The notes: generated by a model from the letters alone, not told the origin. Positions 36,880 to 61,021 are shown, numbered from the stretch's first letter. The stretch is DNA of 63,006 bases from a virus (IMGVR_UViG_3300037840_000064:1-63006); one strand, 5' to 3'. Numbers and translations: made by a program.

Positions 36880-37918
36880 GTTAGACTGGCTACCTTGGCT
36901 GTCGATTCGGTTGTTAGGACTTTACGGCCATAGAGGTTTTAGGAAACCCGTTGTATTCGACGCCATCGAGTAGACGACCAGCGATCTTTTTGCCGCCGCG
37001 CACAAGGCGATCATCTTCGTGTTTGGTACCGTGGAATTCCGCAGGCTGAGCTTGTGCGGCAGGCCACCACTCGCCCCATTGCTTGAAGAAAAATTCGACG
37101 CCTGCAGCGGCGCATTGGTCACGAATGTTGCGCGCCCATTCCGGGTGCATCGGCCGTGCGTCGTAGCCGCTTTCGCCGCCTACTATTACCCAATCAAGTT
37201 TGGTTCCATTAATGAGGCGCAGCCCATCGCGACCGTCCGAGAGATCATCTGATTCTGGAAATCCGATATGATCTTTAGGCCAACGAATGCTGCGAAGATC
37301 GATCGGCGCTAACAATGGTTCGGCCGAAATAAATCTGACCACCGCCGGAGTCTGCAATAAGAATGCGATTCGTTCGTCAGCTTCCTCTTGGCGCTCGCAC
37401 GAAACGCCAAACCACACATTCGATAATGGCCAGGATTCCGGGTGTCTATTATCGCGCGAATAGTGCAGCAATCTCTCCGCGCGCTTCGTCAGCACTTGGA
37501 ACGTATGCTGCGGACAATGTCTGATGACGGCGAAAATCTCATTGATCCATTCGTCTTTCATAAACTCCGCAAAAAGATCAGTCATCGAGCAAACGAACAC
37601 CATGCGCGGCTTTTTCCAATGGAACGGCGCCTGCAACATTTTCTCGTCAAGAAAAATCTCTATGTCTTTGCGGTGCCCAGGCTTGAACGGCAGGCCGGTG
37701 CCGAGCCGCAAATTCATTGCCTCAGAATAGCAATGGATACAGCCCGTCGTATCGTGCTCGCAGTGCCAGCCGAGTTTTCCGGTCGCAAGATTCTTGGCGC
37801 GAATCGGAGTCCAACTCGCATCGGTCCACTCAATATCGCTTTTTGCTCCCACTTTCTCAATCCTCTATGGCCGTAAGAATCTCACAGAACAATCGAGCGC
37901 CAAGGTAGCCAAGCTAAC
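36880..37918. mobile_element. Single-gene cassette 1 bounded by 57-bp inverted repeats
   Basis: IRs at 36880-36936 and 37862-37918. Confidence 0.8.
36914..37852 (-). CDS. Phage Gp37/Gp68 (DUF5131) family protein
   Basis: SDIEWTDASWTP..C..GCIHCYS..FVCSMTDLF..FQVLTKR..RFISAEPLL..WVIVGGESG..FFFKQWG. Confidence 0.92.
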   Translation of the reverse strand: MGAKSDIEWTDASWTPIRAKNLATGKLGWHCEHDTTGCIHCYSEAMNLRLGTGLPFKPGHRKDIEIFLDEKMLQAPFHWKKPRMVFVCSMTDLFAEFMKDEWINEIFAVIRHCPQHTFQVLTKRAERLLHYSRDNRHPESWPLSNVWFGVSCERQEEADERIAFLLQTPAVVRFISAEPLLAPIDLRSIRWPKDHIGFPESDDLSDGRDGLRLINGTKLDWVIVGGESGYDARPMHPEWARNIRDQCAAAGVEFFFKQWGEWWPAAQAQPAEFHGTKHEDDRLVRGGKKIAGRLLDGVEYNGFPKTSMAVKS

Positions 37919-37928
37919 AAACAAATAA

Positions 37929-39278
37929 CTAAGACACCACGCGCGCCTGCGGGTTTGTTAGATCAGTGAACGCTGCAAATTCCGCAAACGTCGGCGCCAT
38001 ACCCGGCAAGATTATCTCCGAAAGGCAAGAAGGTGAACCCGCGTCCGCCACAGGAGGGTTTGAGGACTGACGGTCAGACGCGGGTTCGGACACTGACGCT
38101 ACGGCGAGGTGAGCGTCAGTGCCAACCGAATCAGGAACGGATTTGGTATCGTGATTCGTTTCCGATTCGTCAGCGATTTGTTCTGCTGAATTTTTCGATT
38201 GGTTGCCCCAGGTGTAAAAGTTAGGTGGCAAAACGTGTTCGTCATCTTCGCGCGCAAACAATTCGAGCGCAGGGAGATTGCCCGTCATCGCATTAATCAT
38301 GTCGCGATAATAGGTCGGCTTTGCTGAGTGATCCGTGGCGCGCTCACGGTGATTCGATCCGACTTTTACGTCGGTATCCGGCTTGGGGAGGCCGCGCCCG
38401 CGTTTGAATAAGCACAGGACTTCATCCTGATCCCAAACGATAAGCCCGAGCCCATGATCTTCGGGGCATTCCTCATCGGTTTTTGTCCAGATGAAGCACG
38501 TCGAATAGGCGTCGAAGCCCCATGCTTGCGCGACCGCGTAGGCGAGCGGGAGTTTGACCTTGCAGCGGCCTAGAGGCGTATCGATTTCCGTGGGGTGGAG
38601 CGCGAGAAGGTGGGCGCGGGGTATCCAGAGGAATAGCCACGAATCAGGCAGGGCGCGATTCACGATCGGCATTGCGAGGATTTCGTCCCAAGTCTCTGTT
38701 GCGTAGTGGTTTTCGTAGGCGCGGTTGCCGATGCCGGCTTTGCGGCGCCAAGCGGGGTCGGCATAGATCACGGGGAACTTGCGGCCGGTCGGTTGGAGGG
38801 CTGTGGCATCGGAAAGGGTTTGAGCCAAGTTGCGGCGGCTTTCGGCGTTCCGTGGGCCTTCTTCATCCTCGATAATCTTGGCGCGGCCGGATGAAATTCG
38901 TTCCCGAGTCGCCTTTTTCACGTCATTTAAGGCTTCGTCGGACATTTCGGCATATCGCTGCGCTCGTGAGGATAGGTTTTTGCCCACCCCTAAATCCGCA
39001 AGGGTTGCGCTTGGAAACGGTTTTTCGGATGTACCGTTTTTCTTGGGGCGCCCTTCCCGAATTTCCCCGGCCTGTTTCGCCGCCGCTAAAATCTTACCGA
39101 GTTTCGTTTCCGTGTCGATTTGGAAAACCGTAGCCTCAGTCAGAAGCGCCCTATCCTGGATTTGCTTGGCATAGAGCTTCACATGCTCAAGCTCATCGCG
39201 AATCGAAAGAACTTCTTGGACTTCGACCGCCGCTGCCAGGGCCGTGCGCAAGCGCGCATATTGGGCGAGGCTGCTCAT
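37929..39278 (-). CDS. MT-A70 family adenine methyltransferase with N-terminal extension
   Basis: VIYADPAW..LFLW..AWGF..FIWTK..HSAKP..LELFAR. Confidence 0.85.
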   Translation of the reverse strand: MSSLAQYARLRTALAAAVEVQEVLSIRDELEHVKLYAKQIQDRALLTEATVFQIDTETKLGKILAAAKQAGEIREGRPKKNGTSEKPFPSATLADLGVGKNLSSRAQRYAEMSDEALNDVKKATRERISSGRAKIIEDEEGPRNAESRRNLAQTLSDATALQPTGRKFPVIYADPAWRRKAGIGNRAYENHYATETWDEILAMPIVNRALPDSWLFLWIPRAHLLALHPTEIDTPLGRCKVKLPLAYAVAQAWGFDAYSTCFIWTKTDEECPEDHGLGLIVWDQDEVLCLFKRGRGLPKPDTDVKVGSNHRERATDHSAKPTYYRDMINAMTGNLPALELFAREDDEHVLPPNFYTWGNQSKNSAEQIADESETNHDTKSVPDSVGTDAHLAVASVSEPASDRQSSNPPVADAGSPSCLSEIILPGMAPTFAEFAAFTDLTNPQARVVS

Positions 39279-39586
39279 ATCAGCCCCTTATCCTTCGCCA
39301 GCCATTGCGGAATCGTCAAAAGGATCACTCCGCCTTCGGCCTTGACATACTCAATCTGTGAACGGGGAAGCCAAATCCACTGCGGCTTGCCCTTTTTCGC
39401 CGGGTCGGAAACCGCAATCGCCTTCTTTTCGGGGTTGTCCATCATCAATCGCACGGTCAGATCGATCAGGTCCGAAGCGCCAGTGACGCGCGGACCGCGA
39501 CCAGGCCGATGCTGTTCCTCGTTCTCGCCGAATCGCCCGCGCTCGCGTGGAGCGAACATATCGTCGGTGCCAATTTCTCGCGGCAT
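39275..39586 (-). CDS. Hypothetical conserved phage protein
   Basis: KKAIAVSD..WIWLPRSQIE..LTIPQWLAKDKGL. Confidence 0.7.
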   Translation of the reverse strand: MPREIGTDDMFAPRERGRFGENEEQHRPGRGPRVTGASDLIDLTVRLMMDNPEKKAIAVSDPAKKGKPQWIWLPRSQIEYVKAEGGVILLTIPQWLAKDKGLI

Positions 39587-39587
39587 G

Positions 39588-40052
39588 TCATTGGCCTTTC
39601 GGGTTATGAGTTGCCAACGGCCTCAACTCCCCGCGATAGCTCGGCATGTCCTTGATGCCCAGGTGCATCCGTTCGTCGAAATGCCGATCTTCGATTCGCT
39701 TCGTCATTTTCATGCTCGCCGGGTCGAGATCGAAGATCGGTTTTTTCTCGCGCTCGAAGAACGCAATCTCATGTTTGACGCCGATGCTTTCGTGCCAGCC
39801 CTGCATGTGAGCGACGATGAGAATATCCGCGCGCTCCATCATTGCTTCGTCGAATGGGAGCCAGATTGTTAGGTCGAGCAGGTCTAAACCGCCGTAGAAT
39901 CCGATTGGGTGAGTGTGCGCGATTGGACTGTAAACTTTGATGCCGGACGTTAAGAGCTTTGCGGCGATCTGTGAGGCTTCGATGAATGCGACTTCGAGAC
40001 CGAAAGGAAAGCGGGAATAAGGAGTCGCTAAATAGGCCAATGAATTCGCCAC
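39588..40052 (-). CDS. DUF1937 / nucleoside deoxyribosyltransferase-like protein
   Basis: YLATPYS..VYSPIAHTH..GWHESIGVKHEI. Confidence 0.8.
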   Translation of the reverse strand: MANSLAYLATPYSRFPFGLEVAFIEASQIAAKLLTSGIKVYSPIAHTHPIGFYGGLDLLDLTIWLPFDEAMMERADILIVAHMQGWHESIGVKHEIAFFEREKKPIFDLDPASMKMTKRIEDRHFDERMHLGIKDMPSYRGELRPLATHNPKGQ

Positions 40053-40766
40053 TTTCTTGCCTCCCTACGAAAAGTCGAGATTATCGAACAGCGTTTCCCG
40101 CTCGTAATTAGGATACGGGTTAGGCCGTCGCGTCGTCAGGCTCTCATCAACAAAACGCCTTCTATGGGCATCGCGCAAGTCCCTTCGTTCTGAGGAAGAT
40201 AGAGCGCTGAATGTTTCCATCGTTTCCATTACGAACGCTGTGATTTGTTGGTCGGTTTTTGTTAGATCGTGACTCATGCACGCAGCACTCTGGTTTCTTT
40301 TTCCTCGGCAAGTCGAACAGCGTCTATGGCGAGAGTCAATTGTGCGACGGTTTGGAGGTACATCCTCCACCGATTATAGACGTTGAGCCATTCCTTCTTG
40401 CCTTCGAGTCGTTCAAGCGCCTTGCCGACAGTTTCGGCTCTGCGGAAGGCCCAGGCCCGCTTGCGGGTGAGGATGGTTATGGCGGGGGTTTGGGTCACGA
40501 GGGTTTGTTCCCAGCGGTTAGACCGGACTCGGTCACCGTTGCGCTGTCCAGACGAATCAGATTTTGCCGCGCCCAAGTGCGATACTTGCCCTTCCACGTG
40601 CGAACGCAGACCCATAGATCGGGGCGCCGGCCAAAGCCGGTCACTTCGGCGATTCGGTCCGCCGAAGCCTGGTTTTTGTGCATCGCGAGAGCGCCAATGG
40701 CCAAATTAGGCCCACCTGGACGCGCTTTGGCGTTCCAATTACGAGGGATTTCAACGGGGTATGGCA

Positions 40767-41156
40767 TCATTCTAACCCACTATCGAGAAGTGTTTCCCGT
40801 GAAACATTGGAATCCGGCCCTTCTGCAGCTACTTCATCCGAAAATGGCCAATCGACCTTCCGAAAGTCGGGATTATCCTTTGCCAACATAATCATAGCCC
40901 AACCGCTGCAGAGGTGGCCGGCACGGTCGGGTTGATGGCAGTGGAACTCGACACCCTCCATGAGGCATTTCAGGGCGTCCATTTGGGTCTCTGGCGATCC
41001 GTTGGCGACGTGATTACCCTTGCGGAAAGCGCAGGAATTGCAGCGGGGCGGTAGTTCCGGGAACCGCAGCCGCGCCTTTGGCTCGGCATCGTCACAAAAG
41101 CGGGCCAAGTGAACGCCAAGCTCGCGGCCTTCGTCGGTGGCGCGATTGCGAATCAT
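40767..41156 (-). CDS. Cys-rich hypothetical protein
   Basis: CNSCAFR..KC..FHCH..LCSGW. Confidence 0.65.
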   Translation of the reverse strand: MIRNRATDEGRELGVHLARFCDDAEPKARLRFPELPPRCNSCAFRKGNHVANGSPETQMDALKCLMEGVEFHCHQPDRAGHLCSGWAMIMLAKDNPDFRKVDWPFSDEVAAEGPDSNVSRETLLDSGLE

Positions 41157-41362
41157 GCTGCACCTGGAGGCGGATAAAAGTCCGGCCGCTGCTCATGCCG
41201 GGGGATTTGGAGGGCCTTTTCGATCTTAAGCACCTGCGCCACGGGGATTTGCTCCCACTGGTCCACAGCCTGGGGGGTAATCTTCAAAATCCGAGCTAGG
41301 GCGCTAGGACCGCCCGCCCGAACGATGGCCGTCTTGAGTGCCTGTTTTGTCGTCATTGCCAC
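41153..41362 (-). CDS. cro: Cro-like HTH repressor
   Basis: AGGPSALARILKITPQAVDQW..IP..RHEQRPDFY (YdaS/Cro pattern). Confidence 0.88.
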   Translation of the reverse strand: MAMTTKQALKTAIVRAGGPSALARILKITPQAVDQWEQIPVAQVLKIEKALQIPRHEQRPDFYPPPGAA

Positions 41363-41427
41363 AGGTAATCACAGTTCGAAAATAATTTCAAGTAGTGCTT
41401 GACAACATTCAAGGGCGCCTTTAATCT
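41363..41427. promoter_or_regulatory. Divergent promoters with two operator-like palindromes
   Basis: Plus strand TTGACA(41399)-N17-TAATCT; TCAAG-N5-CTTGA (41388-41402) and TCAAG-N5-CTTTA (41409-41423). Confidence 0.7.
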
Positions 41428-41455
41428 CCAATTATCGAACACAGGGGACTGAGCC

Positions 41456-41614
41456 ATGACGAAGCAGATTTACCGCGGCTACGACATCGAAGAGAGGGAC
41501 GGCAAATGGATCGTCAGCCTCGGCGGCGTGGTCAAAGCAACTGCCGATAGGGAACAGGCCGCCATCGACTTTATCAATATCGAAAAGCGCCAGCATCCCA
41601 CAGCGCAACGTTGA
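41456..41614 (+). CDS. 52-aa first early gene (below ORF-track cutoff)
   Basis: AGGGGA RBS; MTKQIYRGYDIEERDGKWIV... Confidence 0.6.
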   Translation: MTKQIYRGYDIEERDGKWIVSLGGVVKATADREQAAIDFINIEKRQHPTAQR

Positions 41615-41677
41615 CCGACATCCGGCGGCAAAGAACACTCCTATCCCTCGTGACCCAAGACATAGAGACAAAACCCC

Positions 41678-43393
41678 ATGCTCCCCGAACAAACAAAGAC
41701 GATCATCGCCAACGGCCTCAACGCCGCAGCCTTGGCACATCACTCCGATCCGATGTTCAACCACGCTAAACTGTTAGGCGCGGAGCTTCGGAGGGAACAA
41801 CTGGAACGCAGATACGAGCATATCGTCTTGGCGCTGGCGGGTCTGTTGGCGATTAGCGTCGGCATCATTGTTTGGTTCGTGTTGGATCAGGAAGGGGCTT
41901 GCCTCATTCTTGAACACGGGCTCGCGCGCTGAACGGAAAGTCACACGGGGTTTGGGAGAGTGAAATGAGAACCACCATCGCACAGTGTTGTTTAAACGCC
42001 GCCGCCATGCTCGATATAGCGGACGATGGCCAGCGGCGTGACATCAACGCCATGCAACGTTTGCAGAAAGCCAATCGCGGTCAAGCTGAGCTATTACGCG
42101 AAGCCGCACGCATTGCGGACGAACTTGCCGCAGCGCTTCTCGCACTCGCAGTATTGGGCGAACAGGGAATGAAGCCGGACTACAACGAGTGGCTGACATT
42201 TCACGACAAGGTCGCACACGTCGCCCGCGAAGCGCTTAGCAAAGTCACCATCTTTTCGGATGCAAAGGTGACCTCACCATAACCACAGAATACCCGTGAC
42301 CCAAATCGTACCTTAAAAACCAACAGGGGCTTACAATGAGCAATGACATTCTCAGGGGCTTTGAAGGCTCCGAATTCTCCGAGCCGGTGCGCAACGACCG
42401 CCAGACCTTGATCGACGTTCTCAGCAGGACGTGCCAAGCGCGCCATAACTCGATTGCGACCGTGCATCGCGAGGCCGTTCAAACGCTGGCAAGGCTTTAC
42501 ATTCCCCATATCTCGACTTCACCATCGCCGGATCAGTTCCGCGACGTTGCCGACTTTCTGCTCCATTGGGCGCGGATCGCGGATCGGGTTTTGAAGATCG
42601 TCGGCGAGGAAGCCAATTCCAACACGTCGGAAGTTCTCGATATGTCGGATTTCGACGGGTCATTCATCGGCGCCATCGAAGGCAATGCGACGTTCCAGCT
42701 TGAGAAATGCGCGCAAGCGGTCGAGGCTGAGGAAGAGTATGGCGATTATTACGCGGACGATTCCTCCTACGAGGAAAGGGCCGAGTCGTGAGCGATCACA
42801 AAGCAGCACTCATGCAAATCCAGGGCATTCTCGGCGCCTGTGTCAGACAGCGCGCGGCCTCTGACGACAAGATCATCGCCGATCATATCGAGGAAGCCTA
42901 CAAGATCGCGCTTGCGGCGCTTCACGGTCCCGATACGGCACCGCTCATGGTGAAACATACCGAAGATGTGTTGCGGTTTGTGATGTTTGGAGAACGGCCG
43001 TGAGAAACCTCAACCGTCACAACCGCCCCACGCGCTGCGTCGATGGCCGGATCATGCGCCACGATCCCCAGCCTGACGATCCGGGTTTAGAAACCGACAT
43101 TGGCGAATGTCCCGACTGTGATGGTCAAGGCTGCCAAGAGTGCGATTGCTGCGGCAAGAAAGGTTTCACGTCACGCTGTTGGCTTGGCCCACTCGAAACT
43201 TTCGCCTGCGACGCCTGCCGAAATGTGTAAAGACCTCTGGATCATCGACTATGAAAGTTGTTTCAACGATTACGGCGATCACGTCGAACGATTTGGCGAA
43301 GAAGAAGCTCGCCAGCGGTTCCGCGCCAGCCTCAAAGCCTTGGGCTTTGATCCGCACGAGATCAACGATCACTTGAACGATCTGACTTCCTAA
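41678..43393 (+). other. Run of small early hypothetical genes (41678-41932, 41965-42282, 42336-42791, 42788-43003, 43000-43230, about 43223-43393)
   Basis: Co-oriented, mostly overlapping ORFs; 43000-43230 is a CxxC-rich zinc-finger type. Confidence 0.6.
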
Positions 43394-43417
43394 CGAGCAA
43401 CACAACAGGAGCACGCA

Positions 43418-44644
43418 ATGGACCTCTTTCAACCTGCTACAAACACCGCCGCATTTGTCAAAATGGGCATCATGGGCAAGGAAGGAGCCGGCAAGACCAA
43501 GACTGCGGTTAAGGTTGCAATTGGGCTGGTACAATATCTTAAGAAACTCGGCATCAACTATGCCGACAAGCCGGTTGCCTTTTTCGATACCGAGACTGGG
43601 TCTGACTATGTCATCCCGGATTTCCAAGCCGCGGGCATTCCGTTTGTCGTCACCAAGACAAAGACGCTCGCTGACTTGGTCCAAGCAATCGATTGGGCGG
43701 AAAAGAATGCTTCCGTTCTCATCATCGATTCCATCACTCATCCCTACCGCGAAATGATAGCGGCCTATCTCAAGTCGAAGAAACGGACCTTTTTGCAAAT
43801 CGACGACTGGAATTATCTCAAGGGTGATTACGGATGGTCGATGTTTACCAAGCGCTACATCAACAGCAAGCTTCACATCATCATGTGCGGCCGAGCGGGG
43901 GATAATCTGGAACAATATACCGATGACGAAGGCAAGCGCCAGCTTGAAAAAGTTGGCACCAAAATGAAAACTGAAACCGAAACCAGTTTCGAGCCGTCGT
44001 TGTTGGTATTGATGGAACTTCTGGAACGCAACACCCGCGAGCAAGGGTCGCGTAAGCGCAAATTCATCAACCGCGCAACCATCGTCAAAGATCGCTGGGA
44101 TAAGATCAACGGCGACGAAATCGACGATCCAGACTTTGCAGATTTTCTCCCCCACATCGAGCTGCTCAACATCGGCGGCGAACACGTGGGCGTGCGCGAC
44201 ACTGGCGACAGCCAGAGCATTCTCAAGACAGAACCTCGCGATTGGGCGCCAGTGCAAAAGAGCATCGTCCTCGACGAAATCGAAACGCTGCTCACACTGA
44301 AATATCCTTCGACCGGCAAGGAGGACAAGGTTGCCAAGCTCAAGCTCATCCTCAAGCACTTCAATGCGACGTGGACCGAGATTGAGACCACCATGCAACT
44401 CATTGATCTTCGCGCCGGCTACGACAGCCTCTATCAGGAACTCGAAGGCAAGCCCTCGAAATACGCCCGCATTCTCACGGGCGAGCCGCAGGGGGACTTC
44501 ACAGTCATCACCGAGCCCGTGACACACTCGAACGCAACGCAAACCGCGCTCGCGCTCAACGACGATCTGCCGGACTTTGTGAAGGGTCCGCTGCCTCCTG
44601 GAATTCACGTCATCCAGGACAACAGCAAGGGTCTGGGCGAGTAG
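43418..44644 (+). CDS. Sak4-like / AAA_24 recombination ATPase
   Basis: GKEGAGKT Walker A, FFDTETGS, VLIIDSITH Walker B, HIIMCGRA, VKDR. Confidence 0.85.
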   Translation: MDLFQPATNTAAFVKMGIMGKEGAGKTKTAVKVAIGLVQYLKKLGINYADKPVAFFDTETGSDYVIPDFQAAGIPFVVTKTKTLADLVQAIDWAEKNASVLIIDSITHPYREMIAAYLKSKKRTFLQIDDWNYLKGDYGWSMFTKRYINSKLHIIMCGRAGDNLEQYTDDEGKRQLEKVGTKMKTETETSFEPSLLVLMELLERNTREQGSRKRKFINRATIVKDRWDKINGDEIDDPDFADFLPHIELLNIGGEHVGVRDTGDSQSILKTEPRDWAPVQKSIVLDEIETLLTLKYPSTGKEDKVAKLKLILKHFNATWTEIETTMQLIDLRAGYDSLYQELEGKPSKYARILTGEPQGDFTVITEPVTHSNATQTALALNDDLPDFVKGPLPPGIHVIQDNSKGLGE

Positions 44645-44671
44645 CAGGAACAATGCGAGGGTCAAGGATTG

Positions 44672-45068
44672 GGTAGCTTGGCTACCTTGGCCCTCGAATA
44701 TCCTGCCAGGATTTTACGGCCATAGAGGATTGAGAAAATGAGCAAAGGTCCGGCAGAAAAACTGGAAGGCGCCGCACACGCCATTTCGACGGCTGCAATG
44801 CTTCTGCGGAAGGAGGAACCAACCATCAAAGACTTTCTCAAGGAATGCCGCGACATGGAGAACTTTGGGCACGTTCTCGACCCGACGCTTTACAATAAAT
44901 CTGAGCGCCGAGCCGTTAGCGCGTTGATGGAGCCGTTGTTTAAGGCTGCGGTTGACTTCCTGACAGCTTACGACATTCATCTGAGCCAAGCCCGCGCGGC
45001 GCTCGATAAAGTCTCTATGGCGGTAAAGCCCTAACGGCACGATCGACAGCCAAGGTAGCCAGTCCAAC
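44672..45068. mobile_element. Single-gene cassette 2 bounded by 57-bp inverted repeats
   Basis: IRs at 44672-44728 and 45012-45068. Confidence 0.8.
44738..45034 (+). CDS. Hypothetical cassette passenger protein
   Basis: 98 aa; C-terminal SMAVKP and the stop codon lie inside the repeat. Confidence 0.7.
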   Translation: MSKGPAEKLEGAAHAISTAAMLLRKEEPTIKDFLKECRDMENFGHVLDPTLYNKSERRAVSALMEPLFKAAVDFLTAYDIHLSQARAALDKVSMAVKP

Positions 45069-45080
45069 AAACAAACACCC

Positions 45081-45509
45081 ATGAAGCCCGATCACCCCCA
45101 AAGATTCATGTCACTGTCAGAGCCCGGCACGCTGCTCAAGCGCGCCTTCGGCATAACGCAGCGGATCAAACTGAAAGTCGTCGGCGATTCCGATCCGATG
45201 TATTTGGCGATGGTGAGACAACTTCCGTGTTTGGGTTGTAACGATGAACCGAGTGAAGCCGCTCACGTTCGCATGCAATCTGGACCGCACAACAAACACG
45301 GCGGCATCGGCATGAAGCCTCACGATAAATGGGCGCTCCCATTGTGCCAGGACTGCCACAGAGAACAACATCGGATCGGCGAGCGCGCGTTCTGGTCAAT
45401 CGTCGGCATTCATCCACTTTTCGTCTGCGAAAGACTCTATGCGGCGCGCGGAGATTTGGTTAAGATGCGAGACGTTATCTTCAACGCCCGCGCCGGAACA
45501 CTTTCGTAG
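45081..45509 (+). CDS. DUF968/Ref-like HNH-type nuclease
   Basis: YLAMVRQLPCLGC..EAAHVR..GMKPHDKWALPLCQDCHREQH. Confidence 0.8.
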   Translation: MKPDHPQRFMSLSEPGTLLKRAFGITQRIKLKVVGDSDPMYLAMVRQLPCLGCNDEPSEAAHVRMQSGPHNKHGGIGMKPHDKWALPLCQDCHREQHRIGERAFWSIVGIHPLFVCERLYAARGDLVKMRDVIFNARAGTLS

Positions 45510-45530
45510 TCGCTTAAACAGGAGCCAACA

Positions 45531-45746
45531 ATGGCAGTCACAGGCAAGGTCAAGTTCTTCAACGAGCAAAAAGGTTACGGGTTCTTCACCCGCGACGAGG
45601 GCTCGGGCGACGTGTTCGTGCATCGTACCGATCTTCCGCCGAGTCCTGGAAATCTATACGAAGGCCAGCCTGTAACTTTCGAAATCGAGCGGACGCACCG
45701 CGGGCTGCGGGCGACCAACATCAGTTTGGGCGTGCTGCCGCTTTAG
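45531..45746 (+). CDS. csp: Cold-shock domain protein
   Basis: GKVKFFNEQKGYGF (RNP1) and DVFVH (RNP2). Confidence 0.93.
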   Translation: MAVTGKVKFFNEQKGYGFFTRDEGSGDVFVHRTDLPPSPGNLYEGQPVTFEIERTHRGLRATNISLGVLPL

Positions 45747-45981
45747 GAGGGTGGAATGGCGATGACAGCTTTTGAACGGCAAATCCTCGCTGGATTAAAG
45801 GCCTCAACGGGCAATAGAAAACTTCGAGAAAAAGACATGCTCGAATGGCGAACTGGCGGAATTAAACCACGCAGCGGTGAACAAATTATCGAATTGCCAG
45901 TTCTTGGAGTCCAGGTCGCAATTCCAGCCGAATTGATGAGTGTGAAAAAGTAACGACAGGTTAACAGGGAGATTTGAGAAA

Positions 45982-46536
45982 ATGACGACACCTGAATTTT
46001 TGGAATTTCCGAAGATCGCCCGGCTGGCCCGCGAGATCATCGTCACCGAGAAGATCGACGGCAGCAACGGCGTGATATACGTCGGCGAGGATGGCGAGGT
46101 TCTGGCTGGCTCGCGCTCGCAATGGCTTATCGGCTCCGACAATTTCGGCTTTGCCAAGTGGGTGCAAGAACATAAAGACGAACTGCGCACGCTCGGCCCC
46201 GGTCGTCACTATGGCGAGTGGTGGGGATCGGGCATCCAACGTGGCTACGGGCTTCCCAAAGGCGAGAAAAGGTTCTCCCTGTTCAATACGTCCAAGTGGT
46301 CCGACGACGCTATACGGCCGCCCTGCTGCCACCTCGTGCCTGTTCTCTACACCGGCATCTTCACCACCTACTACATCGAAGATGCATTGCAGCAATTGAA
46401 GGAAGGCGGATCGCGTGCCGCCCCTGGATTCATGAAGCCCGAGGGCGTCGTGATCTTCCATCCGCAGGGCAACGTCGGCTTCAAAAAAACTATTGAGAAA
46501 GATGAAGAGTGGAAGGGCAAATCCGCAGCGGCCTAA
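45982..46536 (+). CDS. RNA ligase (Rnl2-like nucleotidyltransferase domain only)
   Basis: Motif I TEKIDGSNG, GSR, YGEW, FSLFN, PEGVV. Confidence 0.85.
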   Translation: MTTPEFLEFPKIARLAREIIVTEKIDGSNGVIYVGEDGEVLAGSRSQWLIGSDNFGFAKWVQEHKDELRTLGPGRHYGEWWGSGIQRGYGLPKGEKRFSLFNTSKWSDDAIRPPCCHLVPVLYTGIFTTYYIEDALQQLKEGGSRAAPGFMKPEGVVIFHPQGNVGFKKTIEKDEEWKGKSAAA

Positions 46537-49198: not shown

Positions 49199-49334
49199 CG
49201 TCGAAACGCATATCTACATGACGCCGGCATTGAAGCGCCAGCTTGAACAGGCAGCGGAACGGGGATGCCGTAGCGTTAACGGGCAAATCCTGCATTACGT
49301 GCAGCGTGGCATCGAACAGGATGCGCGGCCATGA
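49164..49334 (+). CDS. Arc-family ribbon-helix-helix repressor
   Basis: IYMTPALKRQLEQAAERGCRSVNGQILHYV. Confidence 0.75.
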   Translation: MPNAPKKQPKRSVETHIYMTPALKRQLEQAAERGCRSVNGQILHYVQRGIEQDARP

Positions 49335-50287
49335 ACCTCACCCCCGACAAAATCCCAACCGACGCCCCGTCATTTCGGAAATGGGCCGATGCTGCCTGCC
49401 CGCAATGGCCCGGCGAACTGCAAGTCCTCGCCTATCGCGCTTGGCAAGGGCTGGAAGGCATGTCGTTTCGGTCGGCTGCGGATCATGAAGCGTTTATGAC
49501 CAAGTACAAGCAACACATCGGAGCAGTGTGATGGCGAGATCAAAAAAGAAGCCTGAGCTTCGCGAGTTCATGTTTACCGGCACGGTCGAGCTACGTGGTG
49601 TTGTGTTTTTTGTTAATGCCGAAGATGAGGATGAGGCCCGCGAAAAAGCCAAGGCTGGAGAATACGACGATTACGATTCGAACGGCGCCGAAACCGTCAA
49701 TTGGGAAATGAACCCTGACTCGTTGGAAGTGAACGAGTAATGTGCGCCAGCCGGGAGAACACCCATACCGTGCAGCGGATGCGGATGGAAAAGAGCAGCG
49801 AGAAGGTGGCGTGATGAATTTGGCGGACTACTCATCGGGAACAGAACCGCTGAAAATTTGCGGGGCGGACTCGGAGGTCATAAGTGAACCGCGGCAACGC
49901 GGCTATATCGGAATGCGAGGACGCTCGCGGCCCGCCAAACTTTCCATGCTTCTGCGTCGTTAGTCGGGAACTGAGCATGATCGCACTTTGGTTTTGGGAT
50001 TCAACCATCGCGCTAAATAAGCGGAGGTGGTGTTATGTCCAGTCTCCCGCGATCTATGAAATGGCGGGGTGTCCAATCTGTGGGCATCCAGCGAGGGCAT
50101 GGTCAGAGTACGAACGTCACCTATGGTGCGACGCATGTAAAATTGATTTCATTCCTGAACATGCTGGGGTTTTTGACGGGCCAATCCCTGTCGCTACCTG
50201 CGCCATGCTAGGCATACGGTTTGACCGGCTTAATCTCGAAACGAACGAGATTGAGCCATTTGTGGTGGATTTCGGAAGAGGATAGCT

Positions 50288-50638
50288 GTGGGGCAGAACA
50301 AGAAAAAGAAGGCTCAGCTTTGGAAGCTGTTTCGTCGCCAAGAGGGGCGATGCTGTTGGTGCGGTATGAAGATGCTCCCGCCCGGCAGCTATAACGGCAA
50401 AGGCAAGCCACCGCCGCTATTGTGCACCTACGATCACTTAGACTGCCGATTGAGTGAAGATCGAGGAAAGCACGCGGGAGAATATCGGAACTGCGCCGCC
50501 TGTTGGACCTGCAATAATAATCGAGCGCAGATGCAACAGGCAAACACGTCGAAACAAGTGCTGTGGGAGAAATCAGGTGCCTATCCCCGAGAATTACGAG
50601 CTTTGCGTCAAGGCGCGGACGGCGGGGACTCGCCATGA
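50288..50638 (+). CDS. HNH endonuclease
   Basis: RQEGRCCWCG..TYDHL..NCAACWTCNNNR. Confidence 0.8.
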   Translation: MGQNKKKKAQLWKLFRRQEGRCCWCGMKMLPPGSYNGKGKPPPLLCTYDHLDCRLSEDRGKHAGEYRNCAACWTCNNNRAQMQQANTSKQVLWEKSGAYPRELRALRQGADGGDSP

Positions 50639-50886: not shown

Positions 50887-51287
50887 CATGGAACCAAAAA
50901 GCAACATGGTCATACACGCTGGCGTCGCCACCAACCTCTATCCGCAAGGCCCGACATTCCATTGGCGCGACGGATGGATGTTTGCCCGCGGTGAGGGAAT
51001 GAATGTCCACGTCTGGAAAAATTCTCAGAAAGGTCCCCCTGATGTCAGCCTGTGTATCCCGCGTGGCGAATGGGATTCGATAGTGGGGTTTCTCTCTTAC
51101 CCGGAAAGTCCCCGCACCTCCAAAGCCACGAGACCGCGACGCAACTTCTTTTGGCAATGGCCGCGCGATGGAATGGTTTGGTTTGGGAATTATATACTTC
51201 ATGCTTTTCGGGTTGACACATACAGGCACTTGTGCTAGTGCCATGGGCATATCCGGGCAATCCTGCCCGGCTCCTATGGAGGGTTAG

Positions 51288-51989: not shown

Positions 51990-52001
51990 GGGGAAACGAT
52001 C

Positions 52002-53048
52002 ATGCCTCCCCACGCCGACGTGCTGCAATGGGAACACCTGCCGTTCCCCAAATCGCTCCGGGACTTTCAGCGGCTGTTCCCGGACGACGCGGCCTGCGCT
52101 CGCTATCTTGAGGGCGCCAAGTGGCCGAAAGGCCTTGAATGCCCGCATTGCCATGAACGCGGCGAGCCGTTCCGCATGGCGACGCGGACCAGCGTCCTGA
52201 CCTGCCGCAAGTGCCGCAAGCAAACGTCGCTGACAACCGGGACCGTGATGGCCCGGACTCACTCGCCCCTGACGACGTGGTTTTGGGGTGCCTATCTGGT
52301 CGCTACGGTTACCCCCGGCATTTCGACGGTCCAATTCGAGCGCCAGCTTGGCTTGACCCGCGAGACGGCGTTCCAAATCCTGCACAAGCTGAGGGCCGGC
52401 ATGGTGCGCCAGAACCGCGACAGGATAGGTGGCAATCTGGCGCGCGGGGATCATGTCGAAATCGACGAAACGTACATAGGCGGCAAGGTGCGGGGCGAAG
52501 GCAGCGGTCCTAAGCCCGATCATACCGTCCTGGTCTGTGCCGCCGTCGAAGTCCGCACGCGGCCAGCAAAGAAAGGCGACAAGCCCATGCGGCGCGGCGG
52601 GCGCTATGCCGGGCGCCTGCGCCTCGAAATCGTCGAAGGCCGAAGCGAGAAAGACCTGTGCGGCTTTGTCGAGCAGGCCGTAGAGCCGGGCGCCATCGTG
52701 ATTACGGACGCCTACCGGAGCTACAATTCGCTTGGCAAGCGCGGCTACCAGCATTTGCCGGTGATCGAAGGCGGCAAGCCGGAAGTGGCAGAGGAATATC
52801 TGCCAATCGTCCACTTGGTTTTCAGCAACCTCAAAAGCTGGTTGCAGGGCACGCACCACGGCCGGGTCAGCCCCAAGCATTTGCAGGCTTACCTCAATGA
52901 GTTCGTGTTCCGCTTTAACCGACGCTTCTACCCGTTCAATTCGTTCCGCAGCTTGCTCGGCATCGGCGCCAATGGCGAAGCGCCAACCTATGACGGGCTG
53001 TACGACGGAACTTGGAAGCATCCGACAATGGCTAGTCATCATGCCTGA
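52002..53048 (+). CDS. tnp: IS1595-family (ISXO2-like) DDE transposase
   Basis: Zn ribbon CPHC..CRKC, VEIDETYIGG, VITD, KHLQAYLNEFVFRFNRR. Confidence 0.95.
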   Translation: MPPHADVLQWEHLPFPKSLRDFQRLFPDDAACARYLEGAKWPKGLECPHCHERGEPFRMATRTSVLTCRKCRKQTSLTTGTVMARTHSPLTTWFWGAYLVATVTPGISTVQFERQLGLTRETAFQILHKLRAGMVRQNRDRIGGNLARGDHVEIDETYIGGKVRGEGSGPKPDHTVLVCAAVEVRTRPAKKGDKPMRRGGRYAGRLRLEIVEGRSEKDLCGFVEQAVEPGAIVITDAYRSYNSLGKRGYQHLPVIEGGKPEVAEEYLPIVHLVFSNLKSWLQGTHHGRVSPKHLQAYLNEFVFRFNRRFYPFNSFRSLLGIGANGEAPTYDGLYDGTWKHPTMASHHA

Positions 53049-53123
53049 CCATCAACCCGTGGGGCCTGTATGTGTAAAGCCGAAAAGCATGATATACTTA
53101 ACTCCCGGACCCCCTAGATGTAG

Positions 53124-53837: not shown

Positions 53838-53941
53838 CCCGTATCGACGGGCTGAATGATCGCGAAAGCAAGTTCAAGCTATTTCCCGGCGCCATGATTG
53901 CGAGCCTCGACATAACGAACAGGCACTAACCGCCGAACAGC

Positions 53942-55577: not shown

Positions 55578-55600
55578 TAAGCGAATAGCCGGAAACCGAT

Positions 55601-56335: not shown

Positions 56336-56385
56336 CATGCTTATCCGGTTTAGACACACATGCTTATCCGGGTTAGACACACAGG
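56336..56385 (+). repeat. Tandem pair of IS1595-like terminal repeats
   Basis: CATGCTTATCCGG(T/G)TTAGACACA twice (23-bp period); similar to the TIR at 51200. Confidence 0.65.
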
Positions 56386-56394
56386 AGCTACATC

Positions 56395-56733: not shown

Positions 56734-57867
56734 CACGGGGTTAATGCCCATGAGCGATCCGGGAGACGAATTGTGGGACTTGGACGACTATCCAACGGAG
56801 GATTTTATGGCGGGTGGTAAAAAAGAGACTGACCCCGAAGTGCTCGCAAAGCACTGTGAACTATTTGCTCAAGGAGCGAAGCGAAAATACGACGCCGAAG
56901 CAGGTGGTGATATGTGGCTCTTTGAATTGTTCCACCATATGAACGATTGTGCAGAGGCATTGCGCAAACAGGCGCAGTTAGGACGGGAATGAAATGGGCA
57001 TTCTGACAATCACGCAAGACCTCACAAAGGCAACAAGCCGGCGCGAAGATGATGCCGCGAGTAAACTGCTCGCCGCCGCTCTGCAAAACGATGCCGAAAC
57101 TGTTGGGCATATGCTGACCAACAACCGCACAGTCATGGCGTTGGTTGATCGTGGCGTCCTGAAACTCTCTGGTATGAAAACCTAAAGGACGTATGTCACC
57201 ATGAGTAAGCAAGGAAAGATTCAAGGGCCAATGTCTGCCGATGATGCCCCGATCGTTTTAAAATGTTGGGGATGTTCCGGTGAAGGAGGCGGTCGCGTTG
57301 GAATAGTCGGCTGCAATAAATGCGCCGGAACGGGCGCTATCTTTTGGGTCGGGGGTCGCACCTTCTCCTATACGCCGGAAGGTGAAAAACGAGCGAAAAA
57401 AATTCTTAAAGTTTACGACTAACAGGACGCTAGTCGTCTTTCTTGATACCGATATCCCACACCCTGACCAGCACCGGCCCGGCATTAGGTAGCAAACTCA
57501 CCTGGTGCTGGGGGCTGGAAAGCCTTCAAAATCGGGCAAGTTTACTGACCTGGTGCCGAGGAGTTCTCGGCATGGTAGAATTTCGGACAATATGTCACCG
57601 GATAAGCCGCGCCTCGGTACGAGCGAGACAATCGCTTTTATCGCCCTCATTCTTGCGCTGCTTGGGATAGCGCCCGCGCGCCATCCGGGAGCGTCACCTG
57701 GATTTTGCGAGTATCCGGCTTAGAAGGCTTTTTTGGCACGCTCGGCTACAAGGTTCTTGGGGGTATCTCCTAGGATGCTCCAAAGAACCTTGAAGGGCGA
57801 GTCCTTCTGTGAGACTATTATGAGACTATAAGCGCGATTGATTCGCAGCCCTGAATGGGCTGCAATG

Positions 57868-57898
57868 AAAAAGGCCCCGTCCCGCGAGGGAAAGGGCC
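57868..57898 (-). terminator. Rho-independent terminator after the tRNA pair
   Basis: GGCCCTTTCCC-TCGC-GGGACGGGGCC-TTTTT on the minus strand. Confidence 0.75.
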
Positions 57899-57909
57899 AG
57901 TCTTGAAGG

Positions 57910-57983
57910 CGCGGACGGCAGGACTCGGACCTACGACCTCTGGCTTAGCAAGCCAGCGCTCTCTCCAACTGAGCTACGCCCGC
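57910..57983 (-). tRNA. Atypical tRNA, anticodon GCT (Ser) on a short-variable-loop Gly-like body
   Basis: GCGGGCG/CGTCCGC acceptor, GCTC/GAGC D stem, CTGGC-TTGCTAA-GCCAG, T loop TCCGAGT; no encoded CCA. Confidence 0.75.
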
Positions 57984-57989
57984 AAACGG

Positions 57990-58066
57990 TGGATACCGGA
58001 GTCCCGAGTTGAACGGGGGTCACGCAGTTAACAGCCACGCGCTCTACCGTTGAGCTATCTCCGGCA
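57990..58066 (-). tRNA. Atypical tRNA, anticodon GTT (Asn)
   Basis: GCTC-AACGGTA-GAGC, CGTGG-CTGTTAA-CTGCG, CCCG-TTCAACT-CGGG, encoded CCA; extended acceptor stem. Confidence 0.75.
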
Positions 58067-58245
58067 CCGACCGTCAGTCCTCACCCTGCCCTCATCCGGC
58101 AGGGTGAACTGCTTTTAAGCAGCATCGCCAAGCTAGGCGTCGCAGAGATTGTTCGTCAAGGAACAGTATTAGAATCGCGCTTAACCCACCACATTTTGGG
58201 GGTAGCGGGGATAAGCTGTGAATAGCCCGTTTTGAGCAAACAAAC

Positions 58246-58788
58246 TCAATCGTTCGGAAACCCCATAACCATCGGTATTTCTTGCCGATTCTGAGTGAGA
58301 AGGCCAATAAAGAAAGGGATTTTCTCGGCTTTGATGCTCACGTTAGCCGTAAGGCTTTGAAATAACAGCGCGACCATGTACTGGCCCGGCCCCTGGTCAG
58401 CCTTCACGACGCCCTTCTCCCGCTGGCCGCGCAGCGCGACTCCCACGCGCTTCGTCATAAGCCGTAGGAGCTTTTGATCCTCGCGGTTCAAGGCGCGCTC
58501 TGTGAGCAATTGCAGGGCAACGTCGCGGCACGTAAGCGGCTCGTTCGCTTGCCGTAGGATGGACAGGCAAATCCGGGTCATCTGGCCCCGGTTGCTCCAA
58601 TCCTTGGGCGGGCGGAACGCCTTCGGCTGGATCGTTTCGAGCTTAAAATCCGGCTCAAATTGCAGGATCGTGGCGTCGATGTTTTCCAGGTCCAGAACCA
58701 TGCGCCGTAAGGCTTCATGGGCCTTCTCAATATCGCCCGCCAGTTGGGCGCGGCGCTTGACCAGTCCTGAAACAACGAAGGCGTTCAT
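58246..58788 (-). CDS. Hypothetical protein with coiled coil and winged-HTH-like region (element passenger)
   Basis: VSGLVKRRAQLAGDI..LSILRQANEPLTCRDVA; C-terminus after GPGQYM may be read-through into unrelated sequence. Confidence 0.7.
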   Translation of the reverse strand: MNAFVVSGLVKRRAQLAGDIEKAHEALRRMVLDLENIDATILQFEPDFKLETIQPKAFRPPKDWSNRGQMTRICLSILRQANEPLTCRDVALQLLTERALNREDQKLLRLMTKRVGVALRGQREKGVVKADQGPGQYMVALLFQSLTANVSIKAEKIPFFIGLLTQNRQEIPMVMGFPND

Positions 58789-58863
58789 GCCGGAATCGGT
58801 AGCATTTCCGGTAGGATAGGCCTATAGTCTGGCAGGTGAGTTTGCTACCTAATGCCGCATTTT

Positions 58864-59376: not shown

Positions 59377-59378
59377 CG

Positions 59379-59798
59379 CTATGCCACCGAAGGTTTCCCA
59401 AAATGCCCGTTGACGTAGGTGTTCAGCCGCGAGTTTATTTCGTCGACGCGCCTGCCTTCGGCCATCTGCCGGTCCTCGATGCGATCGATCCGGCCGCTTT
59501 GCTGGGCGAGCGTAACGAGCACGCTGCTTAACGCTTCGATGCCTTTTTTTAATTCCTGGATTTCCTTGGATTGCTGGGCGCCGATCATTTCAAATCTGGT
59601 AGCCATGTTGGCCATGCGCCAGACAATTGCGCCTCCCCCCGCTATAACGCTGATAATTTCCAGCGCTCGCAAGATGTTTTCCAAATCCGCGCTGCTCATC
59701 CAATCCATCGTTATCCTAACAAACCCGCCAATACTTTCGCATTCATCCACAAGTCCCAAGACTAAGGTATGGCCGGCATTGTCGCGCGGCCATACCAT
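59379..59798 (-). CDS. TM plus coiled-coil protein (holin/antiholin-like)
   Basis: IISVIAGGGAIVW TM followed by heptads; start probably the internal MDWMS. Confidence 0.6.
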   Translation of the reverse strand: MVWPRDNAGHTLVLGLVDECESIGGFVRITMDWMSSADLENILRALEIISVIAGGGAIVWRMANMATRFEMIGAQQSKEIQELKKGIEALSSVLVTLAQQSGRIDRIEDRQMAEGRRVDEINSRLNTYVNGHFGKPSVA

Positions 59799-59824
59799 AC
59801 CGACTGACGCTACTCCCCCGGCGC

Positions 59825-60577
59825 TTACCAGAGAACGCTAAATCCAGCGAGCACCTGATTGGTCAAACCGCCACTGGCCACTTTGGTTGGGATAGGGCCG
59901 ACGGTGATTGATTGCTGCGAAACAACGTCTTTGATGTAGGTTCGCAGTGCGAGGCCGTTGGACAACTGCTCCATCTGAACAATGCCGAACATAGGCGCTG
60001 CCCGGAATTCCTTGTTGCTCGACAGACCTTGGAAGTTGAGAGAAACGTCATTCCAGTGTACACCGCCCATGAGACCCACCTGGATATTCGATGCAGTCAC
60101 GCCCGCCGGCAGAACATTGAACGGCGGCAGTGTGCCCAGGTTGGGAGCGTTGGGAAGCCACTGCATCAGATTGGCGGCCGGTGTATAGGCAACGACCCTG
60201 AATTCGCCTTCGAGTGGGCCGCCAATGCTAAAGCCCTGTTGCGAGCCGTTGAAGTTTGTGCCGCCGACGTCGGCTTCGACAGAGTAAGCAAAGGGGCTGT
60301 TTTTTGCGCCCCAAGCGTAGCCTACGGTCGCGCCGAACGCGGCGTTCAGTTCAACGAGGCCATTGGGATTGACGGCACCACCGGGCACCGCTGCGGCACC
60401 ATTGACGGGACCACCGCCGCCTTCGGTATAGAGACCGAAGATGACGCCCGAACTTCCGTAAGGATAGCCGGTGAAAAGCGGGCTTGGCGGATTCGCCTTG
60501 GCCGCCATATCCGCCGCCATCGCCGCCGTCGAACTCAGGAGCGCAAGCGCCCCGAGGATTCCAAACAACTTGCGCAT
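59825..60577 (-). CDS. Outer-membrane beta-barrel protein (Omp25/RopB-like)
   Basis: Signal peptide then AADMAAKA..P, GATVGYAWG, SVEADV, C-terminal aromatic residue (AGFSVLW). Confidence 0.8.
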   Translation of the reverse strand: MRKLFGILGALALLSSTAAMAADMAAKANPPSPLFTGYPYGSSGVIFGLYTEGGGGPVNGAAAVPGGAVNPNGLVELNAAFGATVGYAWGAKNSPFAYSVEADVGGTNFNGSQQGFSIGGPLEGEFRVVAYTPAANLMQWLPNAPNLGTLPPFNVLPAGVTASNIQVGLMGGVHWNDVSLNFQGLSSNKEFRAAPMFGIVQMEQLSNGLALRTYIKDVVSQQSITVGPIPTKVASGGLTNQVLAGFSVLW

Positions 60578-60680
60578 GATTCTCTCTCCACTTGTGAAGT
60601 TACGATCATACGCCTAACAGAAAATACCGTGACTTTATTACAACATCACAGATTAAACGACGGGACCGAAAAAGTTTCTG

Positions 60681-61021
60681 GTTAGACTGGCTACCTTGGC
60701 GCTCGATTTTGTTGCGAGGATTTTACGGCCATAGAGGTCAATTTCAGTAAGCCTTCGGGTTCTGAAATGGCCAATAAAGCGCATCGGCGCGGCCCGTAAA
60801 GACAGCCCAAGCATGTTTCAGTCGCGAGCCGAGTGTGAACATGCCGTAGGGTCGCGCTGGTTCATAATCCCCGCCTTTGACTTGGCACGATGGCCCTTCT
60901 TTAATGTGTTTTATCAATTGCCGGATTGTCCATCCGTAAGGAGCTTGGTTCAACATTTTTCCACTCTCTATGGCCGTAAGAATCCCAAAGAACAATCGCA
61001 CGCCAAGGTAGCCAAGCTAAC
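60681..61021. mobile_element. Single-gene cassette 3 bounded by 57-bp inverted repeats
   Basis: IRs at 60681-60737 and 60965-61021. Confidence 0.8.
60744..60956 (-). CDS. Hypothetical cassette passenger protein
   Basis: Start MLNQAPY 8 nt after the repeat; YEPARP..RLKHAWAVFTGRADALYW. Confidence 0.7.
   Translation of the reverse strand: MLNQAPYGWTIRQLIKHIKEGPSCQVKGGDYEPARPYGMFTLGSRLKHAWAVFTGRADALYWPFQNPKAY

Follow-up and report, generated by a model that had tools for sequence, protein, structure and literature searches.

Inverted 57-nt repeats delimit single-gene cassettes at conserved gene junctions of uncultured soil phages

Cassettes and their ends in the window

The 63,006-bp sequence IMGVR_UViG_3300037840_000064:1-63006, which we analysed as a whole and call the window, is a complete, linear IMG/VR virus record (CheckV completeness 100%, G+C 57%) in which three small genes are each enclosed by a pair of inverted 57-nt repeats. 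The initial annotation had described three such cassettes with six ends, and all of them lie exactly where it placed them (Table 1). Each cassette holds one open reading frame (ORF), the passenger, co-oriented with its resident neighbours in 3/3 cases. As had also been reported, the start codons stand 9, 9 and 8 nt inside the upstream (up) end, two cassettes share the spacer ATTGAGAAA, and two unrelated passengers finish with the repeat-coded residues SMAVKS or SMAVKP followed by a stop. To the six ends a seventh has to be added, a solo copy directly upstream of ORF 12715-13239 that the annotation missed. The motif GGCTACCTTGGC is exact in 6/6 paired window ends; with at most two mismatches it gives 16 matches in the window versus 4.36 expected, a number reached by 0/100 shuffles, and TTACGGCCATAGAG gives 7 matches versus 0.15 expected at the same tolerance. 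By inverted-repeat search the paired window arms are 72-84% complementary.

Table 1. Cassettes, ends and resident genes of the window discussed in the text
Feature	Position	Strand	Remarks
Cassette 1, up end	37862..37918	-	after methyltransferase TAG stop; then ATTGAGAAA and passenger GTG start
Cassette 1, passenger	36914..37852	-	312 aa, DUF5131 / phrog_2045
Cassette 1, down end	36880..36936	-	ORF 36556-36861 begins 19 nt past outer edge
Cassette 2, up end	44672..44728	+	27 nt past stop of Sak4-like/AAA_24 gene
Cassette 2, passenger	44738..45034	+	98 aa, without Pfam or PHROGs family; repeat-coded tail SMAVKP-stop
Cassette 2, down end	45012..45068	+	HNH gene begins 12 nt beyond, after AAACAAACACCC
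Cassette 3, up end	60965..61021	-	then GTGGAAAA and ATG start
Cassette 3, passenger	60744..60956	-	70 aa, phrog_21988; own stop 7 nt ahead of down end
Cassette 3, down end	60681..60737	-	
Solo up-type end	13246..13302	-	between ORF 13310-13867 and ORF 12715-13239; 5' leader of ORF 12715-13239
Empty docking site	40274..40277	-	two resident genes overlap by ATGA
DNA methyltransferase gene, resident	37929..39278	-	conserved upstream flank of c1
101-aa ORF (orf101), resident	36556..36861	-	conserved downstream flank of c1
Sak4-like/AAA_24 gene	43418..44644	+	possible single-strand-annealing recombination function of the phage
HNH endonuclease gene, resident	45081..45509	+	conserved downstream flank of second hot spot; candidate actor only
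IS1595-family transposase gene	52002..53048	+	full; not flanked by the 57-mer; candidate without link to the cassettes

Each end is built of an outer and an inner arm, both near-invariant in both orientations, with about 22 variable nt between them, and measures some 65-70 nt when the outer GTTTGTTT extension is included. The AAACAAA that had been taken for a flanking sequence belongs to this extension: it is a less conserved outward continuation of the repeat itself (GTTTGTTTGGTTAG), present on both sides. The outer arm reads (GTTTGTTTG)GTTAG(CT/AC)TGGCTACCT(TGGC/AGTC), in short form GTTAG..TGGCTACCTTGGC; TTACGGCCATAGAGG and, after it, nTTG form the inner arm. In most up ends the sequence is ..TTCTGTGAGATTC-TTACGGCCATAGAGG-(G/A)T(G/T)GAGAAA-ATG, and the downstream (down) ends have other centres. 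The two imperfect palindromes per end that had been proposed find no support in folding, as the seven single 57-mers of the window fold no better than shuffles (z -1.61 to +0.79); for this reason we dropped the attC-like and REP-like (repetitive extragenic palindromic) reading of the ends.

Their two orientations have different relations to the neighbouring genes. An up end follows the stop codon of the preceding resident gene or supplies that stop: resident upstream genes often end within it, some via the TAG of GTTAG, and at one site the gene stops at the TAG of the CTAGTC arm variant, giving ..LAT-stop. It then leads via a Shine-Dalgarno (SD) spacer of the type GTGGAGAAA or ATTGAGAAA into the passenger start, and an SD-like motif followed by an ORF lies just inside one end in 38/41 of the cassettes collected below. 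A down end terminates the passenger, often coding the tail SMAVK(S/P)-stop, and its outer CTAACCAAACAAAC runs into the next resident gene, whose start is 3-20 nt beyond. The polarity from AGCTTGG to GACTGG, which had been called fixed, holds in 3/3 window cassettes but not in the wider set, where 17 of 41 show it, 11 are reversed and 13 have the same arm type at both ends. The true polarity resides in the central and inner part of the end and in what comes next.

The reading frame of the tail is biased. Among 17 unambiguous open-through cassettes 15 use the SMAVK frame, one uses frame 1 and one frame 3 or 1; counted by independent families the ratio is 10 versus 2, for which we estimate a binomial chance of about 5e-4. 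The alternative down-end frame that gives LWP-stop would add fewer residues. In its full form the tail is (Q-x-)SMAVK, and the same frame is used by an empty cassette (L136) and by a resident gene fused to a down end (L129/L142), both described below. In cassette 1 the Pfam DUF5131 profile stops at residue 304/312 and the final SMAVKS and stop are coded by the down end, so the tail is an appendage to a complete domain.

Other possible functions of the ends were considered and set aside. Stops in all three frames of the up end are present in 23/41 cassettes and two frames are closed in the other 18, which is little above chance, and we make no claim of it. A scan of 36000-46000 for sigma-70-like promoters gave 6 sites versus 5.1 expected, none inside an end, and as the consensus scan finds nothing in the ends we assign them no promoter or terminator role. 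A weak terminator-like hairpin with 6 stem pairs stands just ahead of the up end of cassette 1.

Distribution, docking junctions and passengers

Scanned for the exact pattern, IMG/VR yielded 27 loci, which lie on 14 contigs (G001-G014; parts of G008 recur in G003 and G009, and part of G001 in G011). Searching these and the window by nhmmer with a hidden Markov model (HMM) built from the seven window copies, we found 64 ends in 15 phage records, namely 28 convergent pairs and 8 solos. A pattern scan of metagenomes added 66 loci, 37 of which pass the HMM and 23 are new after removal of copies of the IMG/VR contigs. The 15 records and 23 metagenome loci together contain 105 ends, i.e. 43 pairs of 130-1287 bp and 19 solos, some of which are near contig ends and may be halves of pairs. 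All 43/43 pairs are convergent inverted repeats; two of them duplicate the same phage, so 41 non-redundant cassettes are used for counts. The HMM that the initial annotation had proposed, applied to loci preselected by exact-pattern scans, confirms the repeat in other phages and in metagenome loci but not in bacterial genomes: across bacterial and archaeal genomes of 185,579 species the pattern, which demands an exact match at 19 conserved bases and would miss diverged relatives, has 20 scattered single hits versus roughly 39 expected by chance according to our calculation, and 0/20 pass the HMM. A blastn search with the 81-nt up end is negative against 50,697 phage and 72,556 plasmid records, the window region 36000-46000 has no megablast match among cultured phages, the repeat matches no Rfam family, and the literature we searched, to a limited extent, holds no account of it.

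The carriers of the repeat are not simply close relatives of the window phage. The complete genomes G002, G005, G008, G012 and G013 carry it yet have no tblastn match (E<=1e-5) to the window capsid, portal, tail or terminase proteins, and G002 has 406 nt in common with the window, essentially just the repeats. The window region 36001-46000 is present in part in six soil-metagenome runs, one of which may be its source; coverage from four soil runs is based on contigs only, and the RNA run spans no cassette. One run-contig joint (36937/37863) and two 'opposite strand' joints touch the repeated ends only, with sides of 39-60 nt at 85% likeness. Being confined to the repeated ends, these joints may derive from other cassettes, and we take nothing from the runs beyond the soil origin. 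The cold-shock-domain gene at 45531-45746 (+; E 1.4e-17) has the top contig depth in all four soil runs, presumably through mapping of bacterial homologues too. We regard the repeats as marking a real, well-populated cassette system of uncultured soil phages.

To map the junctions, 500-nt flanks of every element were placed on all other sequences and the joints were read. Cassettes occupy a few conserved gene junctions, each of which may be empty, solo-bearing or filled. The junction of cassette 1 (c1, methyltransferase / orf101) is filled in 13 records by cassettes of 206-1161 bp. Upstream of HNH a cassette is present in 11 records, and L129/L142 and L099/L101 have a solo down end there. The resident gene ahead of this end in L129/L142 runs in frame into the tail (..FAKERPASMAVKSEQNG-stop). 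At c3, the junction of cassette 3, cassettes are found in seven records, and L136 (3550-3679) has an empty 130-nt cassette consisting of the up end, ATG CAA GCC and the down end. The up-end ATG is here joined in frame to the tail, so that the micro-ORF MQASMAVQTPR-stop is encoded; the folding energy of the element is -62 kcal/mol (z -6.05). Where the window has its empty junction, G007, L149 and L142 carry cassettes measuring 505, 372 and 1287 bp, respectively. The site of the window solo is empty in G006, with a 9-nt spacer there, and bears a different variant in G001/G011, while the site of the cassette G001 731-1203 has an empty allele in G006. Empty sites and alternative passengers, both of which the initial annotation had suggested looking for, are thus available at several junctions, the latter as many unrelated genes at the same junctions. 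In four empty-versus-filled comparisons there is no target-site duplication, in agreement with what had been noted for the window, and the element replaces a short native spacer.

Some junctions carry other conserved elements in place of the 57-mer. Upstream of HNH in G006, G008, G012, L161, L163 and L166 there is an unrelated element, GTTGACCGAGTCCGG-N20-CTCTCGTGACCCA, also written as GTTGACCGAGTCCGG, about 20 variable nt and CTCTCGTGAC(C/A)CA, which at this place supplies a tail and stop to the upstream gene. It often stands 5-15 nt ahead of a gene start and is repeated within genomes (window at 40534 (-); 12 copies in G012, 10 in G008, 7 in G002, 5 in G006, and others), and it may be a phage promoter or leader. 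At c3, G012, G005 and G001 have no 57-mer and instead a small hairpin-like sequence, GTGTCATTCCAGAT...CACGGAAA(G/T)TCACAC (G012 13627-13710, G005 ~27110-27170, G001 ~45440-45500), the right half of which is also seen just upstream of window ORF 41965-42282 (window 41925-41965). At the c3 junction of G006 (28882-29313), two copies of the other conserved element stand in inverted orientation on either side of a gene.

The passengers are highly diverse. A catalogue of them, another proposal of the initial annotation, comprises 40 proteins, which all-against-all blastp divides into five DUF5131 proteins, one pair and 33 singletons, so that at least 35 unrelated families pass through a few docking sites. 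All five DUF5131 passengers sit at c1, with a mutual identity of 27-58%. The two members of the pair, G001_731 and L149_3426, have 77% identity over 122 aa and reside at two different junctions, and at each the ends have the centre typical of that junction. When 23 passengers were scanned against Pfam, the only domains were DUF5131, the 5-hydroxymethyldeoxyuridine (5-hmdU) DNA kinase helical domain (G008 24300-25154, at c1), HTH_3 (G004) and an IS1595 zinc ribbon. The presence of DUF5131 proteins and of a 5-hmdU DNA kinase helical domain beside a methyltransferase hints that the c1 slot gathers DNA-modification or anti-restriction functions. No transposase or integrase was found within or adjoining any cassette; copies enclosing a transposase or recombinase, which the initial annotation had suggested looking for, did not turn up. 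The 170-aa passenger of L142 has the zinc ribbon domain only. Two otherwise unrelated passengers, G010 26920-27519 and L116 502-975, have in common a 14-residue C-terminal stretch, 93% identical (..SFPGDPDLEL..); it is situated immediately inward of the down end, and the 57-mer does not encode it.

In the rest of the window a tailed-phage layout is recognised by PHROGs and Pfam scans of 60 ORFs, a set that does not include every small ORF: tail spike, internal virion protein, tail protein, major head, portal and terminase pieces, a DnaD-like loader, four DNA methyltransferases, a Sak4-like/AAA_24 protein, an HNH endonuclease, an RNA ligase-like protein and a cold-shock protein. No integrase, invertase or recombinase family is among these 60 ORFs. 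Across the whole window only two tRNAs reach an Rfam gathering score. The initial annotation saw no cognate transposase; taken as the absence of any transposase this is not accurate, for the window encodes a full IS1595-family enzyme (zinc ribbon E 8.4e-12, DDE domain E 1.7e-34), although nothing ties that ORF to the repeat. The transposase region is bracketed by 48-nt inverted arms (51180-51227 / 53064-53111) with -10-like TATAAT/TATACT motifs and a box CATGCTT(T/A)TC(G/C)GG..ACA, found also twice in tandem at 56336-56381. Judged by sequence, these arms look like outward-facing promoter/operator copies, unlike the 57-mer or transposon ends. A perfect 25-nt inverted repeat (57480-57504 / 58833-58857) brackets a 1.38-kb segment with two tRNA genes (57910-57983 and 57995-58064 (-)) and ORF 58246-58788 (-), without PHROG family, and could be another bracketed module or an invertible segment. 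Finally, a 74-nt stretch at the start of ORF 49742-49963 (49744-49818) is 93-100% identical in G012, G005, L146 and G013, which otherwise have little nucleotide similarity; G001, G004 and G012 each have 2-3 copies of parts of it, and Rfam gives no match at E<=1 on 49300-50300.

Breakpoints and possible mechanism of exchange

Comparison of filled alleles locates the breakpoints at the inner arms. Between G007 and L149 the flanks are 96-100% identical, the ends 80-93%, and the interiors unalignable; similarity stops right after CCATAGAGG and restarts at CAAGCCTCTATGG. In pairwise genome comparisons at c1, similarity in the up end exceeds that of both 290-nt flanks in 21/21 pairs, and in the down end it does so in 17/21; interiors are 9-39% identical, homologous passengers excepted. 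The 22-nt centres of the ends are mostly site-specific whatever the passenger: 8/13 up ends at c1 read G(T)TGCGATT.TTCT...AGATT., and 10/11 of those upstream of HNH read (C/T/G)CTCGA.AAT.CTG..AGGATT. These alignments show that phages differ by replacement of the DNA that the inner arms enclose; what moves is the SD motif plus ORF between them, whole-end replacement being only occasional. Since the centres mostly belong to the site and the similarity breaks at the inner arm, the ends behave as resident docking adapters.

With a probability of roughly one half, we propose that the ends are resident junction adapters of a mosaic group of soil phages, between which passengers are exchanged by short-homology recombination of co-infecting phages. 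Adapter pairs would sit at c1, upstream of HNH, at c3 and at the junction empty in the window, and a passenger would be replaced by a double crossover at the short conserved arms during co-infection, carried out by the phage's own annealing or recombination functions (a Sak4-like gene adjoins cassette 2) or by host RecA. Recombination at such short arms is plausible because the phage has a Sak4-like annealing protein, and it is what is left after the tests of RNA pairing, transposition and site-specific recombination described below. Solo ends and the 130-nt empty cassette may then be intermediates or remnants, and the inverted geometry could, speculatively, descend from an ancestral palindromic intergenic element at whose centre genes were inserted. 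We infer a mechanism that would work most like the modular shuffling of the PeSL (promoter early stem-loop) type discussed in the last section.

Several facts weigh against exchange by short homology. The evidence is a comparison of assembled contigs, in which no recombination event is directly seen, and an inner arm of 15-19 nt is short for homologous recombination. Such recombination neither needs nor explains the inverted arrangement, and the fact that both arms are conserved equally and almost completely, whatever the orientation, looks more like protein recognition. The bias of the SMAVK frame (15/17; 10 families versus 2) is not explained by it either. Only one passenger family was found at two junctions, the c1 centre has exceptions (G000, G010, L112, L099, L116), and the window solo differs in arm and centre from the G001 solo at the same site. 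It should be noted, too, that flank-strand calls, based on the longest ORF at 57% G+C, are noisy outside the four mapped sites. As inversion, arm conservation and frame bias are left unexplained, a dedicated, enzyme-driven mechanism has to be kept in mind, although we consider it rather unlikely. The arms, chiefly the inverted core TTACGGCCATAGAGG, would then be sites for a specific enzyme. This could be a site-specific recombinase or else, in a homing-like manner, an endonuclease making a break that is mended from the filled allele of a co-infecting phage, with the HNH protein beside one hot spot or a domesticated IS1595-like protein as candidates. This would fit arms almost invariant in both orientations around a variable centre, exchange boundaries that coincide with the inner arm, a tail frame bias suggestive of a precise joint, and the in-frame joint of the empty cassette in L136; by tblastn, HNH relatives are present in 10/14 other records and IS1595-like genes in 7 other sequences, with 5 of the 14 records (G003, G005, G006, G008 and L136) among them and the L142 fragment included. 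On the other hand, no integrase or invertase family was detected by Pfam and PHROGs in the 60 window ORFs or in the 23 passengers scanned, no 57-mer lies up to 3 kb from the HNH gene of three further phages, in which this gene is 78-80% identical, a transposase relative is missing by tblastn from the complete genomes G001, G002, G012 and G013, and no orientation variants of passengers are seen. Were it nevertheless so, a tentative outcome that we hold to be rather unlikely as well, the phages would have a new kind of cassette exchange, in which a dedicated protein would recognise inverted core pairs at fixed docking junctions, and ORFs would be plugged in frame as precise units between a supplied ribosome-binding site and a C-terminal tail with stop. 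Functionally it would be an integron for phages, with a different geometry and enzyme.

Two other explanations are less probable still. The repeats could primarily be RNA elements whose 5' and 3' copies pair into a long stem in a polycistronic transcript, to be cut by RNase III or to gate translation, gene exchange being merely a by-product of shared sequence. Both ends do lie within transcription units, co-oriented with the neighbours in 3/3 window cassettes, there is a Shine-Dalgarno spacer at the up end, the outer arms could form a duplex of 20-28 bp, and the empty cassette folds stably as given above. We nevertheless find this improbable, because among the end-to-end differences of 39 cassettes 54 keep G-U in the sense strand, 56 in the antisense strand only and 212 are transversions, which is no wobble bias; the 22-nt centres of paired ends do not complement each other, solo ends work without a partner, single ends fold no better than shuffles, and no Rfam family is matched. 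The arms themselves hardly vary, and covariation on them speaks neither way. About as improbable, in our estimate, is that the cassettes are non-autonomous transposons, either mobile insertion cassettes (MICs) or passenger-carrying miniature inverted-repeat transposable elements (MITEs), whose 57-bp ends are used in trans by a phage-borne IS1595-family enzyme or by a host insertion sequence (IS). The architecture (inverted ends, one passenger, no transposase inside), the presence/absence polymorphism between phages and the empty, MITE-like 130-nt form speak for it; IS1595-like genes are encoded by the window, G005 (two, 77% and 25% identical), G003/G008, G006 and L136, with a fragment in L142 (tblastn), whose cassette holds the zinc-ribbon-only protein. 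However, the four empty-versus-filled comparisons show replaced spacers rather than target duplications, and it is mostly the site rather than the passenger that the centres of the ends follow. The 57-mer does not flank the transposase genes, the G008 gene having no second end within about 1.3 kb (nhmmer --max), and 4/8 complete or near-complete genomes have no transposase relative by tblastn. No real copy of the repeat is found in the species genomes by pattern scan and HMM, and no IS with 57-mer ends in the 15 phage records or the 23 metagenome loci.

Our results thus retain one half of the initial interpretation, that accessory-gene cassettes are shared and exchanged among phages, and do not support the other, a MITE- or integron-like vehicle that travels with its own ends. 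Against that picture stand the mostly site-tracking centres, breaks at the inner edge, the lack of duplications, of a transposase, of bacterial copies and of arrays. Gain and shuffling of small accessory genes by phages (morons, anti-defence and DNA-modification genes) are mostly described just as 'mosaicism'. The adapter pairs with their changing passengers make a concrete, sequence-defined device for it visible in phages with unrelated virion modules. They offer a search handle for accessory genes of uncultured soil phages and a model of cassette exchange, by short homology or site-specific, that can be put to the test. Should their apparent functions hold (stop codons, ribosome-binding site, tail and lead-in to the following gene), they are also a natural insulated expression slot that may be reused in phage engineering.

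Comparison with known systems

By the defining features of these classes the system is not a MITE or MIC, an integron, a shufflon or a REP element. Mobile insertion cassettes and passenger MITEs are non-autonomous IS derivatives with terminal inverted repeats around passengers and no transposase. The 57-mer cassettes resemble them in multiple polymorphic copies, inverted ends and an empty form, and differ in that target duplications are absent, no cognate IS was found, the ends appear resident and the repeat is confined to phages. In integrons, each cassette has one attC site and stands in a tandem array behind attI and the Pc promoter, served by the tyrosine recombinase IntI. There too ORFs are without an evident promoter of their own and depend on context, passengers are diverse and boundaries are imperfect repeats; here, however, no integrase was found in the 60 ORFs scanned, each cassette has two inverted ends, and single units sit at separate junctions. 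MPME1 and MPME2 of mycobacteriophages, each a single element of about 440 bp with short repeats and its own small ORF, are likewise small, phage-specific mobile elements with inverted repeats at the ends, but lack the paired adapters with interchangeable passengers. An invertible segment or shufflon does not correspond to a system with no invertase family in the 60 ORFs scanned and, in contigs only, an ORF after an SD-like motif in 38/41 cassettes. Unlike REP/REPIN sequences with their REP-associated tyrosine transposases (RAYTs), the repeat is absent from the bacterial genomes scanned and its single ends are not significant palindromes; RAYT was not specifically searched for.

The closest analogue among those compared is the PeSL cassettes of T4-like phages, where small non-essential ORFs of plastic genome regions lie between short, conserved intergenic motifs (PMC2839356; PMC4122927). 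Indels and replacements between related phages map to these motifs, and recombination between copies was proposed (Arbiol et al. 2010, Comeau et al. 2014; PMC2839356; PMC4122927). PeSLs are described there as direct repeats that consist of a sigma-70 promoter and a terminator stem-loop and can form mini-circles (PMC2839356; PMC4122927). The 57-mer similarly stands at the borders of indels and replacements between related phages. Its ends, in contrast, are inverted (43/43 pairs), have no sigma-70-like promoter and show no significant single-end folding, and they supply what PeSLs do not, namely stop codons, a ribosome-binding spacer and a coded C-terminal tail.

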